Positions 50,871 through 61,734 of a stretch of DNA of 64,000 nucleotides are shown piece by piece. Below the pieces are notes generated by a model. It saw only the letters and a list, made by a program, of their open reading frames with translations, was not told the origin of the DNA and searched no databases. The stretch comes from Candidatus Staskawiczbacteria bacterium RIFOXYB1_FULL_38_37 (GTDB taxonomy: Bacteria; Patescibacteriota; Minisyncoccia; Minisyncoccales; Staskawiczbacteraceae). Location: contig MHPK01000002.1 in NCBI GenBank assembly GCA_001822075.1, forward strand, positions 75,872 through 139,871, written 5' to 3'. The position numbers were made by a program, and so were the translations under genes. How positions within the stretch are numbered: position 1 is the stretch's first letter; every line of letters starts with the position of its first letter.

Positions 50871-50874
50871 ATTT

Positions 50875-51272
50875 GTCCTAATAAGACCGTAAGCCGAATT
50901 CTGTTTTATGCAACCATCTGTCTTGGCTTAGAATTACTCCTAAGCTCTGGCGAACTACTTTGCTCCCTCATCAAGCTTTAAAATTCATAAATGAATTTTC
51001 CAGGCTTTACCCTGAGCTTGTCGAAGGGTTTGTTCTTGCGCCCAATAAGGATTTAGCCGTTTCATTTTTACATTGCTGTAAAATTATCCCATGAAGGGAT
51101 GCTGAACCTTTCGGTCCAAGCCGTTTCTGTTCGCACCTCGTCCGCCCGCAACTGCGTAGCTGTTGGCGGAGACGGCTGTTAGCCGCTATTATTTTATCCC
51201 GCCATAGGCGGGAGGGTGTTCGGACTTTCCTCTCTTCATTAAATAAAGAGCGATTGCTCGTCTTATTAGGAC
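50875..51272 (-). ncRNA. rnpB: RNase P RNA (bacterial type)
   Basis: Minus strand has GAGGAAAGUCCGAACACC (CR-I), 3' ACAGAAUUCGGCUUACGGUCUUAUUAGGAC pairing with 5' GUCCUAAUAAGACGAGC (P1); about 398 nt. Confidence 0.85.
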
Positions 51273-53127: not shown

Positions 53128-54264
53128 ATGAAAAAACAACTTGGACAATTTTTTACAACGAAAGCAGATGCCGTTCTTTTGGGTTTTGAAAATTTTGTCA
53201 AAAATAAATATGTTGTTGACCCCTTTGCCGGCAATAAAGATTTGATAAATTGGGCGAAAAAAAATAATTGCAAAGAGGTTGTTGGTTTTGATTATGATAA
53301 AAATTATATTGATAATAAAGAAGTTTTTTTGAACGATTCGATAAATCAGGCGCAGAAATATAGATTTGTTTGTACTAATCCGCCATATCTGCATAAGAAC
53401 AAGGCAGACAAAACAACTAAAGATAAATTTTTTAATGGATTTAATTCAAAATTTGAGGATTTATATCAAATATCAATTAATTCAGTTTTAAATAGCGAAG
53501 AAGGTATTTTAATTGTCCCCTTAAATTTTCTTTGCGCTGAAAATTCAAAAAAAATTAGGGATTTATTTTTTGATAAATTTGAAATTATAAAATTGAATAT
53601 TTTTTCTTCTCAAATTTTTAAAGATACAACCTATAATGTAGTGTCATTTTATTTTAAAGAAAAGAAAGATGATTCCTCTAAAAATAAAATTTCAGCCACA
53701 ATTTTTCCAGATAATAAAAATATTACATTTACAATTCAAAAAGAATTTAATTGGCAATTAGGAGGGGATTTTATTAATAGAATAAAAAATACGAAAAATT
53801 ATCTCGGAATTTTTCGCCTTACAGAGGATTATTTAAAATCCGGTGAGTATGAAGTGGAAATGGCGTTGCAAAACATAAAAGATAGAAAAATTTTTCATAT
53901 TAGCTCTGGGATTAAAGAGAAACTGAAAAAAAATATTTTGTTTCTTAGGGCAATAGACAGCAAGAGTGGCAAAAAAATTCAAATAGAAGATATAAGGGAC
54001 TATGGTATCGCGGGGCTTGCAGGAAAAAATACTTCGCGAAATATGGCCCACTTAATTTTTGATAAAGATATCCCGATAAACGAGCAAGTAGGGCTGATGA
54101 CGCAATTTAATAAAGAATTGAATGAAAACAGAGATAAATATTTTTCGTATTTTTTAACAAATTTCAGGGATAATAATAGAAAAAGAATTTCTTTTGACTT
54201 AGTTTATAAATTTTTAAATTATATTTATCATGAAAAAAAGTCTAAACAACCAACACTATTTTAA
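53128..54264 (+). CDS. N6-adenine DNA methyltransferase (gamma-class order of motifs)
   Basis: LGQFFT, VVDPFAGNKDL (motif I-like), CTNPPYL (motif IV). Confidence 0.75.
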   Translation: MKKQLGQFFTTKADAVLLGFENFVKNKYVVDPFAGNKDLINWAKKNNCKEVVGFDYDKNYIDNKEVFLNDSINQAQKYRFVCTNPPYLHKNKADKTTKDKFFNGFNSKFEDLYQISINSVLNSEEGILIVPLNFLCAENSKKIRDLFFDKFEIIKLNIFSSQIFKDTTYNVVSFYFKEKKDDSSKNKISATIFPDNKNITFTIQKEFNWQLGGDFINRIKNTKNYLGIFRLTEDYLKSGEYEVEMALQNIKDRKIFHISSGIKEKLKKNILFLRAIDSKSGKKIQIEDIRDYGIAGLAGKNTSRNMAHLIFDKDIPINEQVGLMTQFNKELNENRDKYFSYFLTNFRDNNRKRISFDLVYKFLNYIYHEKKSKQPTLF

Positions 54265-55141
54265 AATATCTATGGAAAATCCAGAAGGCATTTTAGATGA
54301 ATTTTATGTTTTTGACGAAAAACACCCTCAATTGGAAAAGTATGTTTCTAATACAAAAGATATTAAAAATCTTTTGATTACGATAAAGACATTAAAAGAA
54401 CGGGGAGAAGATAAAGCAACTACTAAAAAATATTTGATAGAACTTTCTAATATCCTAAATAAATTTTCTAATTGTTCAGAGTTCGGTTGTTTTATAAATG
54501 CTTGTGATAGTTTTTTAGATTTTGCAAAAACTGATTTAAATTTACTCGGGAAAATAGCGGACAAATATTTTGAGAAAAGAATTTTGAATGAATCAATCCC
54601 CGAAGAGTGGATACAGGCGATACTAGACTCAAATTCGTCTAGAAAAAAAAGCAAATGCGGAGAAGAAAAACTAATATATATCTTAAAACATAATGGTTTT
54701 CAGGAAATTAAAAAATGGAACGATTTTTTCAAAAAAGAAAAATGTGTCGCTAAATTTTCTAAAAATTTTAGCGTTAAAAATATTAGAAGAAAATTGAATA
54801 TTAAATTATCTACTAAAAAGCAGAATAAAAATTTAGATTTAATTATCAAAAGCGGGGACAAAATCTTTATGTGTGAAGCAAAGCATTTAAACACTTCTGG
54901 GGGAGGACAAGATAAGCAGATATCAGAATTAATTGAGATAGTTAATTTAAGAGAAAATAATAAAAATATTTATTATATAGCCTTTTTAGATGGCATTTAT
55001 TCTAATGTTCTCTTAAATAGCGCTGATGGAGGAAGTAAATTAAAGCAACAACAAAACGAGATTAAAAAATATTTGTCCATTAATTATAATAATTTTTGGG
55101 TAAATACAGCAGGATTTAAACAGTTGGCTTCTGATATGTAA
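54230..55141 (+). CDS. putative type II restriction endonuclease (PD-(D/E)xK-like)
   Basis: Overlaps the methyltransferase gene end; LDLIIKSGDKIFMCEAKH fits D..(E/C)xK; alternative start ATG 54272. Confidence 0.5.
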   Translation: MKKSLNNQHYFKISMENPEGILDEFYVFDEKHPQLEKYVSNTKDIKNLLITIKTLKERGEDKATTKKYLIELSNILNKFSNCSEFGCFINACDSFLDFAKTDLNLLGKIADKYFEKRILNESIPEEWIQAILDSNSSRKKSKCGEEKLIYILKHNGFQEIKKWNDFFKKEKCVAKFSKNFSVKNIRRKLNIKLSTKKQNKNLDLIIKSGDKIFMCEAKHLNTSGGGQDKQISELIEIVNLRENNKNIYYIAFLDGIYSNVLLNSADGGSKLKQQQNEIKKYLSINYNNFWVNTAGFKQLASDM

Positions 55142-57405: not shown

Positions 57406-59025
57406 ATGAAAATTAAATCATTTGCAATAATATCAGCATTATTTTTAGTTTTATTAATAATTCCAGGTGCCAGTTATGCGCAGACTTGGTGCCATACTTT
57501 TAATAAAAATTTAGGCGTTGCAGATTCTGGCTCAATTGATGTGGCATATCTTCATGTCGCTCTTTTATCAGAGGGCATTTCATATGGAAATGACGGTCTT
57601 ATTGCTTATTCAGATGGAACGATTGCCGGCGTAATCGTATTTCAGGAAAAATATGCTTCTGAAATTTTAGCTCCATGGGGCCTCACAAAAGGCACAGGAT
57701 ATGTTGGCACAACAACAAGGGCAAAACTAAACCAGCTTTATGGATGTTCAAGCTCTTCGGGCAATTCAGGGACACCCACTTGCGCTGTAAACTGGCAGTG
57801 CACAAATTGGGGCAATTGCTACAGCAACCAGCAAATAAGAGTTTGCACTGACTACAATTTCTGCGGCACAACTTCTGGCAAGCCAGTTGAAACCCAATCC
57901 TGCGCTTCTTCAACCTGCGCTCCAAGTTGGCAGTGCACGGGTTGGAGCGCATGTTCTGGCGGCCAGCAAACTAAAACTTGCACAGATTATAACTTCTGCG
58001 GCACAACTTCTGGCAAGCCGGCAACAACGCAGTTTTGTTCTTCTACTAATACAAATAACACAAACAATACAAACACTTGCCAGGCGACCTGCATAACTCA
58101 GACAGATGGAGTTTATGCCATTGACTGCTATGGAAATCCGACAAAGTGCAGTTCAACTCAAATTTGCGAAAAAACTTTTGACACAAGCTATAACTATTCA
58201 AGCGGGTATGTGCAGACTATACAAACTTTAACAGGGGCCCACTGCGCATACAGCAGTAGCAGCAACACAAATAATACAAGTTGCACGCCAAATTGGCAGT
58301 GCGCTGGTTGGGGCGCATGCTATAACGGTTATCAAACACAAACTTGCACAGATTACAACTTCTGCGGCACAACATATAACAAACCTGCAACAAGCCGGAG
58401 TTGTTGTACCGAAGATTGGGAGTGCGGTAATTGGTCAGCTTGCGCTAACAACCAACAAACGCGTACCTGCGCAGATTTAAATAGTTGCGGAATTGCAACT
58501 AAAACTGAAAGCCAGTATTGTTGTGTTGAAAATTGGGACTGCGGTGACTGGAGTAGCTGCAACAATGAACAACAGACAAAAACCTGCGTAGATTTAAATA
58601 ATTGCGGCACAACTTTAAATAAGCCCGCAACCTCGCAATATTGTTGCGAGCCCAATTGGTTTTGCAGTCTCTGGGGAGTTTGTTCAGCTTATGGCCAGCA
58701 AACAAGAACCTGCGCCGATTCAAATAGTTGCGGAACTCCAGAAGGCAAGCCAGAAACAACGCGATCTTGCGCCTGCGTTGAAAAATGGCAATGCGGAGCT
58801 TTTAGTGCTTGCTACAATAGTCAGCAGACGCGCTTTTGCTATGATGCAAATCACTGCGGAACTACAACAAACAAACCCTATACTAAGCAGTCATGCACCT
58901 CAACTTGCAGTCCAAATTATGTATGCAGCCAACAGCCCGCCTGCAAAAACAGCCAGATACAGAGCTACTGCTATGATTTAAATGCGTGCTTTAGCCAGTC
59001 TGAATTTAGAATCTGCGCATTTTAA
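57406..59025 (+). CDS. secreted protein: peptidoglycan-binding-like module plus about 8 six-Cys repeats
   Basis: Signal peptide; FQEKYASEILAPWGL; repeats C-x3-W-x-C-x2-W-x2-C-x4-5-Q-x-(R/K)-x-C-x-D-x-N-x-CGT. Confidence 0.7.
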   Translation: MKIKSFAIISALFLVLLIIPGASYAQTWCHTFNKNLGVADSGSIDVAYLHVALLSEGISYGNDGLIAYSDGTIAGVIVFQEKYASEILAPWGLTKGTGYVGTTTRAKLNQLYGCSSSSGNSGTPTCAVNWQCTNWGNCYSNQQIRVCTDYNFCGTTSGKPVETQSCASSTCAPSWQCTGWSACSGGQQTKTCTDYNFCGTTSGKPATTQFCSSTNTNNTNNTNTCQATCITQTDGVYAIDCYGNPTKCSSTQICEKTFDTSYNYSSGYVQTIQTLTGAHCAYSSSSNTNNTSCTPNWQCAGWGACYNGYQTQTCTDYNFCGTTYNKPATSRSCCTEDWECGNWSACANNQQTRTCADLNSCGIATKTESQYCCVENWDCGDWSSCNNEQQTKTCVDLNNCGTTLNKPATSQYCCEPNWFCSLWGVCSAYGQQTRTCADSNSCGTPEGKPETTRSCACVEKWQCGAFSACYNSQQTRFCYDANHCGTTTNKPYTKQSCTSTCSPNYVCSQQPACKNSQIQSYCYDLNACFSQSEFRICAF

Positions 59026-59078
59026 AATTATTCCGTTCAAAATTATAATTTTTAAAAGTATTAATAGATTTTAATTTT

Positions 59079-61013
59079 ATGAAAATAAAAATATTTTTAA
59101 TAGCAGTTTTGTTTTTATCTTTGCTGATAATTCCCGGAGTAATTTTGGCGCAAGAGTGGTGTCACACCTTTAAGGTTGGTTTAAGAAAAGGCGACCAAAG
59201 CCAGGAAGTTTCTGAACTACAAAGAGCTTTGATGAAAGAAGGACTTTTATTTATTCCCCAGCCCACTGGCTTTTTTTGGAATGCTACATTTGACGCTGTT
59301 GTTGCTTTTCAGGAAAAATATGCTTCTGAAATTTTAGCTCCTTGGGGATTAACTCGCGGGAATGGCGTGGTGAGCTTTAAAACAAGAGAAAAATTAAATC
59401 AACTCTATGGATGTTCAACAATTTCCACCTGTACTCCGAGTTGGCAATGCGCAGATTGGAATATGTGTTCAAACAATCAGCAGACCCGAACCTGCGCAGA
59501 TTCTAATAATTGCGGAACAACGGCAAACAAACCCATAACAACTCAGTCGTGTTCTTCAACTTGCACTCCAAACTGGCAATGTTCAGATTGGAGCGCGTGC
59601 GTTACAGGCGGCCGGCAGACCCGAGCCTGTACTGATTCTAATAATTGCGGAACAACTCAACCAGAAACAGCTAGGTTTTGCCCTTGTACTCCGGATTGGG
59701 AATGTATCCAATGGAGCCCCTGTTGGAATGGCGAGAGAGCCCGCGCATGTCACGATAAAAATAATTGCGGTGATAACACAAACAGACCCGAGATAAGACA
59801 ATCCTGCGCGTATACTTGTGAGCCAAATTGGTCTTGCACAGATTGGAGTAATTGTATTCCTACTGGTTTAACGAGCGGTATAAAATATAGAAATTGTGTA
59901 GATGAGGGCAATTGCGGAACAACCGCAAATAAACCTTTAACAACGCAAGTTTGTTCTACTGGAGCTCCTGCTCCAGTTCCTGAATGCACATCAGCCGATT
60001 GGTCTTGCACAGACTGGTCAGATTGTTCTGTTTCCGGCGCTGTTCCTTTGAGCAGCACCCAGACTTTGACTGGCACTCAAACCCGCACCTGTAGTAGAAA
60101 ATCAGGTAATAATTGTTATGGTGGCAATCCCGCAACAAGCCAGTCTTGCACCGTGGAAGTAGAGGTTCCAACACCAACTCCAACCCCGACGCCTACGCCA
60201 ACACCAACTCCAACCCCGACCCCGACTCCGATTGAACCAACGCCGACCCCGACCCCGACTCCAACGCCAATAGGGATAGCTCCTACACCAGGATGTACCA
60301 TGTCTGCTCAACCTACTATAGGTTGGAGTAGTTGCGTTTGTGGCGAGAAATATAAAACAAATTATGTCGTTCAATATTGTCCTGATGGAACAACTGAAAG
60401 CCTCAGCGAGACAATGCAAGAAGCTCAATGCGGTTATAAAGTAGGAACGAAAACATATTGCTATGAAGGTTCAAAAGATCCCCAAAATAATAGCAAGAGT
60501 AAGGAAGTGTGCGCTGTTAATAATTGGAATGGTACGTTAGGAGATACTTGGCTGATCGGCTACAAAGATCAAGGAGCTCAGTGTGTTGTTAAAAACGGAG
60601 TGATAGGCGGTACATGTGGTTATAATTGTTATTTTAGTGGAGGAGAACAAATACATTATCCAGACACAAAGCCTCATTGCAGTTCAGAGTGTAAACAAGA
60701 TAATAATGGAAGACTATGGGCCGTCAATGAGGGGGGTAATGTGTCACCACATTCAAGGGTAAATTGCGGATATGTATCAAGCGGAGCTAAATGTACACTT
60801 CAAGATGGCACTTATTGTAAAAAAGCTGTCTGTTTGAGTAATCTTGCCACCGCTCCTAAGCCATCTGGCGGCAGTTCGGGGTCGTCTCTAACACCTCTTA
60901 ATTCTACTCCAACTCCAACACCGATCCGGACCCTGACTCCAACTCTTGACGATATCCAAAATCAGCTGGCATCTATTGCGAGTGTAATTTATAATTTATT
61001 GAATCCTCAATAA
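59079..61013 (+). CDS. secreted paralogue: peptidoglycan-binding-like module, about 5 six-Cys repeats, (PT)n linker and Cys-rich C-terminal domain
   Basis: Same N-terminal architecture; PT-rich linker encoded at 60167-60270. Confidence 0.7.
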   Translation: MKIKIFLIAVLFLSLLIIPGVILAQEWCHTFKVGLRKGDQSQEVSELQRALMKEGLLFIPQPTGFFWNATFDAVVAFQEKYASEILAPWGLTRGNGVVSFKTREKLNQLYGCSTISTCTPSWQCADWNMCSNNQQTRTCADSNNCGTTANKPITTQSCSSTCTPNWQCSDWSACVTGGRQTRACTDSNNCGTTQPETARFCPCTPDWECIQWSPCWNGERARACHDKNNCGDNTNRPEIRQSCAYTCEPNWSCTDWSNCIPTGLTSGIKYRNCVDEGNCGTTANKPLTTQVCSTGAPAPVPECTSADWSCTDWSDCSVSGAVPLSSTQTLTGTQTRTCSRKSGNNCYGGNPATSQSCTVEVEVPTPTPTPTPTPTPTPTPTPTPIEPTPTPTPTPTPIGIAPTPGCTMSAQPTIGWSSCVCGEKYKTNYVVQYCPDGTTESLSETMQEAQCGYKVGTKTYCYEGSKDPQNNSKSKEVCAVNNWNGTLGDTWLIGYKDQGAQCVVKNGVIGGTCGYNCYFSGGEQIHYPDTKPHCSSECKQDNNGRLWAVNEGGNVSPHSRVNCGYVSSGAKCTLQDGTYCKKAVCLSNLATAPKPSGGSSGSSLTPLNSTPTPTPIRTLTPTLDDIQNQLASIASVIYNLLNPQ

Positions 61014-61084: not shown

Positions 61085-61112
61085 TTGATTATAATGATTT
61101 TTATGTTAAAAT
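61085..61112 (+). promoter_or_regulatory. promoter of the tRNA array
   Basis: TTGATT - 16 nt - TAAAAT. Confidence 0.45.
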
Positions 61113-61143: not shown

Positions 61144-61498
61144 CGCGCCTTGGAGGAGTAGTACCTCGACAGTCTCATATTGTAGCCTCGTGCGATTCGA
61201 GGCAAAATGTGACCCCGAGCGGTAACGCTCGGCGGAAAAATTCCTTAAATTGCTGGAAACCCTGCAAGCATCCTAAAATACTACTATGCGTAGTAGCATG
61301 GTAGTGATAATTTTTAGGCGATGCAGACAATCAGCAGCCAAATCCACGAAAGTGGAGAGGTTCAGAGACTATAATAGGAATTACCAATTCGTGTGCCTGC
61401 CGGTAGGCAGGAATTGGTAAGTGGTATAGTCCATTCCTTTTAGCGATAAAAGGTAAAAAAAGAAGCTGTAGGCCCTGGTGCAATTCCAGGAGGCGCAA
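61144..61498 (+). tRNA. intron-containing tRNA (CAU), initiator-like; exons 61144-61178 and 61463-61498
   Basis: Cloverleaf forms only after removing 61179-61462; C1xA72 mismatch, A11:U24, U8, U33, anticodon CAU. Confidence 0.7.
61179..61462 (+). ncRNA. group I intron in the anticodon loop (no ORF)
   Basis: Core elements AAAUUGCUGGAAACCC, GCAGCCAAAUCC, GUUCAGAGACUAUA, GGUAUAGUCC; 5' exon ends in U, intron ends in G. Confidence 0.75.
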
Positions 61499-61511: not shown

Positions 61512-61585
61512 GCCGGGGTAGCTCAGTTGGTAAGAGCGTTGCACTCATAACGCAAAGGTCGGGAGTTCGAATCTCCCCCTCGGCA
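61512..61585 (+). tRNA. tRNA-Met or tRNA-Ile2 (CAU), elongator type
   Basis: GCCGGGG/CCTCGGC acceptor, loop CUCAUAA, T-arm GGGAG-UUCGAAU-CUCCC; CCA not encoded. Confidence 0.9.
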
Positions 61586-61589
61586 CAAT

Positions 61590-61665
61590 GCGGGCGTAGT
61601 CCAGCCTGGTTTAAGACGCCTCCCTGTCACGGAGGAGATCAGGGGTTCAAATCCCCTCGCCCGCG
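61590..61665 (+). tRNA. tRNA-Asp (GUC)
   Basis: GCGGGCG/CGCCCGC acceptor, loop CUGUCAC, T-arm AGGGG-UUCAAAU-CCCCU. Confidence 0.9.
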
Positions 61666-61734
61666 CATGAAGCTTTCAATACGAGAGACCTGATTTCCCG
61701 ACTGAGAATTTTTCTCCCGTTTTTGGTTATTCAC

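Follow-up and report, generated by a model that had tools for sequence, protein, structure and literature searches.

A group I intron splits a tRNA(CAU) gene in a 64-kb stretch of contig MHPK01000002.1 of Candidatus Staskawiczbacteria bacterium RIFOXYB1_FULL_38_37 (positions 75,872 to 139,871; hereafter the window, in whose own numbering all coordinates are given). Judged from sequence, positions 61144–61498 very probably represent the Staskawiczbacteria initiator tRNA gene, bearing a 284-nucleotide (nt) group I ribozyme without an open reading frame (ORF) at U36/A37, where the ribozyme persists as a selfish element that is tolerated. The kind of element is well known; this member of it is new, or has at least not been visibly described, and is common rather than singular.

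The original prediction had posited an intron-split tRNA(CAU) at this locus, and this is confirmed at the stated coordinates: Rfam recognizes the intron and ARAGORN arrives at the same junction. The 284-nt group I intron claimed at 61179–61462 was matched by the Rfam covariance model RF00028 (Intron_gpI) at 61177–61453 on the + strand, over the full model (1–253), with 66.0 bits against a gathering threshold of 50 (E = 1.6e-14); the core blocks named in that prediction align to P3/P4, P4'/P6, P7 and P7' of the model. With introns allowed, ARAGORN reports the split gene unaided as 'i(36,284)'; in its default mode it overlooks the gene and calls only the tRNA-Met(CAU) at 61512–61586 and the tRNA-Asp at 61590–61666. 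The cloverleaf expected upon removal of 61179–61462 is likewise found, the joined exons being called as tRNA-Met(cat). On the basis of ARAGORN and the orthologs, exon 1 (61144–61178, + strand, 35 nt) of this initiator-type tRNA(CAU) supplies the 5' strand of the acceptor, the D-arm, the 5' strand of the anticodon stem and C32–U36, and exon 2 (61463–61498, + strand, 36 nt) supplies A37, A38, the 3' strand of the anticodon stem, the variable loop AGGC, the T-arm, the 3' strand of the acceptor and A73, with no CCA encoded at its end in the window copy. The spliced tRNA is a 71-nt cloverleaf with C1xA72, U8 and A73, the acceptor stem CGCGCCU/AGGCGCA, the D-stem GAGG/CCUC including A11:U24, the 7-nt D-loop AGUAGUA, the anticodon stem ACAGU/GCUGU with the loop CUCAUAA, and the T-stem CCUGG/CCAGG with the T-loop UGCAAUU.

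The junction can be regarded as fixed because uninterrupted orthologs read CTCAT|AAGCTG, which places the intron on the + strand between U36 and A37; as had been foreseen, the 5' exon ends in U (U36) and the intron in G (61462). The RF00028 match ends 9 nt before the true 3' end of the intron, and its boundary at 61453 was rejected as a splice site: it would leave UAAAAAAAG in the tRNA, and both the orthologs and the omega-G rule point to 61462. A junction shifted by one base (CATA|...GA|AGC) was also discarded, as it violates both the U at position -1 and omega-G. The pre-tRNA folds into a structure much more stable than those of shuffled sequences (z = -9.8), and its minimum free energy (MFE) fold displays the anticodon stem along with P1, P2, P4, P5, P6, P7, P8 and P9.

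The elements of the ORF-less intron, all on the + strand, can be assigned from the RF00028 match, the ARAGORN call and an alignment of the family to which it belongs. U33 C34 A35 U36 (61175–61178) constitutes the 5' strand of P1, with U36 as the splice-site U at -1, and pair counts identify the internal guide sequence GUGA (61209–61212) as its 3' strand; because GUGA pairs with U33–U36, the anticodon itself lies within P1. Folds and alignments further reveal a P1 extension hairpin GCCUCG/CGAGGC (61185–61203) restricted to the Staskawiczbacteria-type subfamily. P2 (61213–61235) comprises 2 base pairs (bp), a bulge and 7 bp beneath the GNRA cap GUAA (61222–61225), while P3 brings together UUCCU (61241–61245) and AGGAA (61376–61380). 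P4 pairs UGCUGG (61251–61256) with UCAGCA (61331–61336), in keeping with the P4 of RF00028. P5 (61262–61326) consists of CUGCA/UGCAG with a window-specific extension at 61267–61321, as judged from the MFE fold and the alignments, and P6/P6a (61338–61360) ends in a GAAA loop. P7, recognized by RF00028 and pair counts, joins GACUAUA (61367–61373) to UAUAGUC (61425–61431) in a pseudoknot with P3, and its 5' strand leads directly into the 3' strand of P3 (61376–61380) with neither P7.1 nor P7.2 between them. P8 (61382–61419; UACCAAUUC / GAAUUGGUA) has a long distal extension, and P9 (61436–61453; CCUUUUA/UAAAAGG) has the GNRA cap GCGA (61443–61446). Omega-G is the last intron nucleotide (61462) by comparison with the uninterrupted orthologs, and a G is final, directly 5' of A37, in all 43 of the 43 intron copies delimited by ARAGORN. 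P10 is taken as absent, since the 3' exon (AAG/AAC) could form no more than one pair with the nucleotides that precede GUGA.

This structure was evaluated by aligning 37 unique introns to an explicit P1–P9 model including the P7 pseudoknot and counting the pairs. In this alignment 98.6% of the cells are paired, as against 31–44% when the partners are slid, and both sides have changed in 28 of the 50 pairs; the covariation score is 0.461 versus 0.163 in shuffles, a value reached by none of 500 shuffles. Pairs changed on both sides occur in each of P2 (7/9 pairs, 99.1% paired), P3 (5/5, 100% paired), P5, P6 (where the second pair goes from C:G to G:C in 6 sequences), P8 (3 of the 4 pairs tested) and P9 (6/7); P4, 100% paired, is invariant in the family and uninformative for covariation. 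The splice-site wobble U36.G is present in 37/37 introns, and a compensatory change of U33-A to C33-G is seen in two members (L113 and L135), where CCCAU stands in the loop and GUGG in the guide. A comparison of the window intron with that of the related genome L003 shows identical core blocks and compensated differences in the P1 extension, P2, P5, P6 and P8. The predicted structure is that of a group I ribozyme whose fold is kept by compensatory change.

The identity of the host tRNA was assessed with a set of 56 sequences (37 unique) from GTDB relatives and metagenome copies (loci L001–L135). The initiator type that had been proposed from C1xA72 and A11:U24 is borne out, in that both features hold family-wide (n = 56): position 1:72 is CxA, AxA, GxA, AxG, CxU, U-A or U.G and in 0/56 a G:C or C:G, while the remaining six acceptor pairs are paired in all 56. 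A11:U24, A73 and G30:C40 occur without exception (56/56); elongator tRNAs typically have a pyrimidine at 11 and a purine at 24. The determinants for formylation by E. coli Fmt are G2:C71, C3:G70 and A73, and all of these are present in the window tRNA. At the three anticodon-stem positions where initiators have G:C pairs (29:41, 30:40 and 31:39), the window tRNA has A:U, G:C and U.G. All three G:C pairs are retained in only three of the host tRNAs seen (L034, L107 and L071), which combine a GGG/CCC anticodon stem with a normal D-loop and the T-loop UUCAAAU; the hosts form a continuum from canonical formylmethionine initiator tRNA (tRNA-fMet), as in these three, to the window form. In E. coli, G30:C40 is the essential one of the three pairs and is sufficient alone, and natural initiators of mycoplasmas and alpha-proteobacteria break the three-G:C rule with au/GC/GC and au/GC/gu stems (PMC5389676). 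The window tRNA resembles the latter in having A29:U41, a retained G30:C40 and a wobble third pair, but differs in that theirs is G31.U39, whereas its own U31.G39 is a pyrimidine:purine pair that breaks the run of three purine:pyrimidine pairs, and in that it additionally has a remodelled elbow with A18/G55.

The absent G:C pairs, a D-loop without GG and the T-loop UGCAAUU had been noted earlier as oddities; they are real, and they are lineage-wide traits, not signs of decay. Position 18 of the D-loop and position 55 of the T-loop covary perfectly, with A18 accompanying G55 in 41 sequences (27 unique) and G18 accompanying U55 in 15 (10 unique). The A18/G55 type combines an AGNAGUA D-loop (61157–61163 in the window) with a UGCRAUU/UGCAAAU T-loop (61479–61485 in the window) and offers no U55 to TruB. 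The loss of GG from the D-loop thus goes together with the unusual T-loop, and the near-universal contact of G18 with pseudouridine 55 in the elbow seems to have been replaced by an A18/G55 contact. Taken as a whole, these sequence features support an initiator (tRNA-fMet type) rather than an elongator or Ile2 identity for the window host.

A search of GTDB genomes with LepA, encoded upstream of the locus, yielded 24 relatives with 73–87% identity, none identical and most labelled Candidatus Staskawiczbacteria or other Patescibacteria (the candidate phyla radiation, CPR); identity to metagenome-assembled genomes of Staskawiczbacteria is 85–87%. In 15 related GTDB genomes, a trio of tRNA(CAU), tRNA(CAU) and tRNA-Asp lies downstream of lepA, and the first tRNA of the trio is uninterrupted in 13 of the 15 and split by an intron in two. 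In one of these (L003) it is interrupted at the identical point by an intron of 282 nt; in the other (L018), by a family intron that ARAGORN did not call and that was recovered with the family profile. All trio orthologs have the D-arm GGAGGAGUAGUACCUC, the T-loop UGCAAUU and the loop CUCAUAA, with compensatory variation in the acceptor, anticodon and T stems. An uninterrupted ortholog (that of L004) has an exon 1 identical to that of the window and an exon 2 differing in the T-stem only, and an uninterrupted ortholog scores 49.9 bits on the Rfam tRNA model. The gene is therefore not a decaying pseudogene, a reading excluded by synteny in the 15 related genomes and by lineage-wide conservation with compensatory stem changes.

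The extent of the family was explored by scanning metagenome contigs with the shared P7/P7' pattern GTTCAGAGACTATA N{25,55} GTATAGTCC, which returned at least 119 loci, and at least 120 in a viral collection. With this many metagenome and viral matches the pattern proved generic and was abandoned as a lineage-specific probe, the family being sorted instead by ARAGORN and a profile hidden Markov model. Among the metagenome matches listed, ARAGORN finds 41 loci at which 200–444 nt interrupt a tRNA(CAU) after position 36, and the family profile adds 13 metagenome loci and L018, their flanks being initiator exons; the family intron thus occupies the identical site in two GTDB relatives and at least 54 metagenome contigs, its host initiator tRNAs being mostly of CPR type. 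None of the 120 viral loci listed is a tRNA(CAU) case. The metagenome set was chosen by presence of the intron and hence holds no information on frequency; the 15 GTDB relatives were not selected on it. A LepA tree shows the carriers dispersed: the nearest neighbor of the window (L004) is without the intron, the carrier L080 pairs with the intron-free L023, and the carrier L003 stands beside the intron-free L016. The deeper branches that could be scored all carry the intron, though they come mostly from the intron-selected metagenome set. This distribution fits an old intron that would have undergone repeated precise loss and possibly regain by recombination. Among the family introns no credible homing-endonuclease ORF was found, only spurious frames of 41–85 codons running through the conserved core on both strands. 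It is because of the lack of a homing endonuclease and the patchy distribution among close relatives that the intron is seen as a tolerated selfish element.

Certain members and relatives of the family show departures in architecture or host gene. The longest member (L040:1772-2287), at 444 nt, has about 190 extra nt after P9 and before omega-G, with no credible ORF, and L072:7818-8072 has a structured insertion of about 50 nt that separates UUG from CUGG in the 5' strand of P4 and is unique in the family. The core GTTCAGAGACTATA...GTATAGTCC is found exactly in at least 120 IMG/VR contigs (L146–L265), with several introns per contig in L151, L185 and L204, while the metagenome locus L101:8953-9581 has two core copies about 370 nt apart, neither of them lying in a tRNA(CAU) gene. 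A group I intron related to the family, scoring 105–118 bits on its profile, sits within a protein-coding gene at five loci on the - strand (L027:4563-4772, L085:3756-3966, L088:1225-1431, L129:715-923 and L133:11469-11666). Excision of 257–271 nt, with a U ending the 5' exon and a G ending the intron, restores a dnaK/Hsp70 frame in all four loci tested (620–637 amino acids (aa) in L027, L085 and L133; 401 aa in L088); the gene is split within the N-terminal motif IGI|DLGTT, and L129 was read from its flanks only.

Among previously described tRNA introns, one survey lists four classical classes, namely Leu at 34/35, Arg at 36/37, fMet at 33/34 and Ile2 at 36/37, all of subgroup IC3 (bioRxiv 10.1101/2020.01.27.920355). 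Nakagawa et al. (2026) described 22 intron-bearing tRNAs from 95 complete Patescibacteria genomes, with cases in Asn and Asp at 35/36, Met(CAU) at 33/34 in Microgenomatia, and Phe, Tyr and Thr, and within those genomes reported neither IC members nor a CAU tRNA at 36/37 (PMC13011429). Those introns and the family considered here belong to the same phylum and the same kind of element and are mostly ORF-less; the Asn and Asp introns (IA), however, lie at 35/36, whereas the family lies at 36/37 in the initiator. Against published subgroup-labelled introns, the family profile gives its best score, 42.7 bits and in the core only, to the Patescibacteria Asn 35/36 intron, with which it has the P7 block GGUUCAGAGACUA in common; that intron, labelled IA, has P7.1/P7.2 between P7 and P3', which the window family is without. 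The profile further gives 30.3 bits to an actinobacterial IB2 intron and at most 14 bits to every IC3-labelled intron, versus 124–218+ bits within the family. Profile scores thus set the family apart from IC3, and the site and the lack of P7.1/P7.2 set it apart from the Patescibacteria IA introns; its subgroup is ambiguous and is left unassigned, the best hits being 'IA' (core only) and IB2.

The classical fMet.2Ug intron of cyanobacteria and Bacteroidota (33/34, IC3) is comparable in being sporadic and in that the mature initiator needs splicing (PMC13011429; bioRxiv 10.1101/2020.01.27.920355), but it separates U33|C34 rather than U36|A37, and its hosts are canonical tRNA-fMet. Two Bacteroidota examples score only 10.0–10.5 bits on the family profile, and some cyanobacterial copies have a PD-(D/E)XK endonuclease ORF (PMC13011429), none of which was found in the window family. 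Closer in position are the Ile2.5Ug and Arg.5Ug introns of the Azoarcus and Agrobacterium type, which likewise insert after the third anticodon base; those of Ile2(CAU) also have the anticodon CAU and an identical P1 CAU/GUG pairing with the U36.G wobble. Like the window family, these 36/37 introns are small, have no ORF and cap P2 and P9 with GNRA loops, and the Azoarcus intron is not known to have the P5abc-like extension that most family members carry. Their hosts are Ile2 or Arg rather than the initiator, and Bacteroidota examples score weakly on the family profile (Arg, IC3, 14.0 bits; Ile2, IA1, 12.4 bits); the profile gave no match to an Azoarcus sequence. The family would thus operate as the known tRNA introns do, but by these sequence comparisons it is outside the classical fMet intron lineage and the published Patescibacteria classes. 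No description of an initiator-tRNA intron at 36/37 was found in the texts consulted; bioRxiv 10.1101/2020.01.27.920355 mentions 17 new classes, and the 36/37 initiator class may already be among them, because Williams' 2017 data probably included the L003 genome.

Two tRNA introns with characterized splicing chemistry, those of Anabaena tRNA-Leu and Azoarcus tRNA-Ile, suggest by analogy a plausible course of splicing. Transcription of the cluster would start from a promoter some 30 nt upstream, where a consensus scan finds a candidate site, TTGATT-16-TG-TAAAAT (61085–61112, + strand; 9/12 matches and an extended -10 TG). U33-C34-A35-U36 would then pair with the guide GUGA as P1, which puts the U36.G wobble at the splice site, and free guanosine bound in P7 would attack after U36. 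Omega-G (61462) would next occupy the same site, and the freed 3'-OH of U36 would attack before A37, yielding CUCAU|AA. Because no P10 pairing is available, we infer, as for the Anabaena tRNA-Leu intron, that the anticodon stem ACAGU/GCUGU holds the exons together and aligns them; both this role and the splicing chemistry are inferred from such analogies. RNase P and CCA addition would complete the tRNA. The intron itself would be no essential part of the tRNA but a tolerated selfish element that has been lost and perhaps regained by recombination.

Several points weigh against this interpretation. The invariance of P7 in the analyzed set was forced by a search pattern that required the P7 blocks. 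The single G:C pair remaining of the canonical three in the anticodon stem weakens, but does not exclude, membership of the window tRNA among the initiators. Self-splicing of the window copy is predicted from sequence, and with only 64 kb of the genome in view a second, uninterrupted initiator gene could exist elsewhere. Further, the window alone has swapped the P5abc-like module of the family for an unrelated hairpin and U-run, and this replacement could impair the activity of its intron. The replaced module (61267–61321), as modelled in the MFE fold, consists of P5a (CCUAAAA/UUUUAGG) and a 10-bp hairpin at 61279–61306. That hairpin, followed by AUAAUUUUUA, was flagged as terminator-like; such a role is doubtful because the U-run also pairs with 61271–61277 as P5a.

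From these points arises the possibility that the window copy is crippled or dispensable, with the replaced P5 extension inactivating the ribozyme and an initiator gene elsewhere supplying the cell. The module is common to most members, including L100, whose exons are identical to those of the window, and the limitation of the view to 64 kb and the resemblance of the hairpin and U-run to an intrinsic terminator could be read in the same direction. However, the core helices, joining segments, U36.G, omega-G and both GNRA caps are all intact; at least eight members (L034, L049, L057, L072, L096, L107, L113 and L135) have no P5 extension whatsoever, so it is not obligatory; and one terminator-like match is about what shuffles produce (0.8 expected). 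Neither exon shows a sign of decay, as both equal those of L100 and exon 1 equals that of L004, and tRNA genes are, as a general expectation, probably single-copy in small CPR genomes. We accordingly consider a crippled allele unlikely. The comparison with L100 also has a bearing on the history of the intron: the half comprising P7-P3'-P8-P7'-P9 is almost identical in the two, while window 61179-61360 and L100:1384-1600, spanning the P1 extension, P2, the P5 extension and P6, agree at only about half of their positions by an alignment estimate, a mosaic that suggests recombination between intron alleles.

A more ambitious proposal would be that of a CPR-wide, undescribed lineage of ORF-less introns (neither IC3 nor the published IA) at 36/37, kept as an RNA-only throttle on initiation by way of a guanosine-cofactor ribozyme and residing on a re-engineered initiator with an A18/G55 elbow and an au/GC/ug stem; in its entirety this combination is improbable. 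The functional component can also be considered on its own, namely that the intron is kept as a useful guanosine-dependent gate coupling initiator tRNA supply, and with it translation initiation, to the nucleotide or Mg2+ state. RNA-based regulation by such introns has been suggested for Patescibacteria by Nakagawa et al. (PMC13011429), strong purifying selection acts on the ribozyme fold in many lineages, no other tRNA offers as much leverage as the host, and the deep branches scored in the LepA tree all carry the intron. Yet 13 of the 15 GTDB relatives, among them the nearest neighbor of the window, do without it, and a selfish intron in an essential gene must likewise keep its fold to be tolerated, which leaves a gate quite improbable next to the tolerated selfish element. 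A dependence of initiation on self-splicing would require that this be the sole initiator gene and therefore lies beyond what the 64-kb window shows. Least probable is a host that is an elongator tRNA-Met or tRNA-Ile2(CAU) in parallel to the Azoarcus-type Ile2 introns: 36/37 is indeed the classical Ile2(CAU) intron site (bioRxiv 10.1101/2020.01.27.920355; PMC13011429 Table S5) and the anticodon stem lacks two of the three G:C pairs of initiators, but against this stand the lack of G:C or C:G at 1:72 in all 56 hosts with the other acceptor pairs kept, the exceptionless A11:U24, the gradation of the host set into fully canonical tRNA-fMet, the separate conventional G1:C72 tRNA(CAU) that adjoins the window tRNA, and the existence of natural au/GC/gu initiators with G30:C40 alone enough in E. 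coli (PMC5389676).

The wider surroundings of the gene have a G+C content of about 36% and genes almost all on one strand, coding for EF-G, EF-Tu, SecY, Adk, Map, Tpi, the RNase P RNA, MurJ, a restriction-modification pair, LepA and Fur. The uninterrupted tRNA(CAU) that had been reported downstream is indeed present at 61512–61586 (+ strand; ARAGORN, Rfam, orthologs), 13 nt beyond A73, and is an elongator Met or Ile2 tRNA that belongs to the conserved cluster, of which tRNA-Asp(GUC) at 61590–61666 (+ strand) is the third member. In relatives with what may be termed form A of this second tRNA(CAU), an A31xC39 mismatch is conserved where the anticodon stem begins at its base, and in other Staskawiczbacteria (L002, L004, L011 and L017) the slot is occupied by a different tRNA(CAU) of 73–75 nt, form B; each of the two forms would be an elongator Met or an Ile2 tRNA. 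The bacterial type A RNase P RNA (50874–51269, - strand) narrowly exceeds its Rfam threshold, with 104.5 bits against 100, and leaves several helices unmatched, which suggests a divergent or reduced CPR version of this RNA. Between murJ and lepA, a pair of ORFs (53128–55141, + strand) with a GC fraction of about 0.31 and weak matches to an N6-DNA-methylase and a DpnII/Tsp45I restriction enzyme probably represents a type II restriction-modification island acquired by insertion. Directly upstream of the tRNA cluster are two large ORFs of 539 and 644 aa (57406–61013, + strand; GC 0.43–0.44), of which the former has no Pfam match and the latter has a weak peptidoglycan-binding match and a Thr/Pro-rich repeat at its end.

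Because default tRNA finders overlook the split gene, carrier CPR genomes appear to be without an initiator tRNA, and this seeming loss distorts completeness estimates and annotation. Likewise, the catalogue of bacterial tRNA introns is incomplete for the initiator, since a class present in at least 54 metagenome contigs is unlisted in the survey of 95 genomes (PMC13011429). Were the intron to act as a regulator after all, organisms with few protein regulators would have an RNA-only control of initiation through the maturation of their sole initiator tRNA. The most useful by-products are the consequences for annotation and the unusual CPR initiator tRNA itself. In this regard, the host tRNAs can be seen as a natural series of initiator variants, extending to those with G30:C40 only and from G18/U55 to A18/G55, which could inform the true needs of the ribosome, IF3, Fmt and TruB in reduced translation systems.

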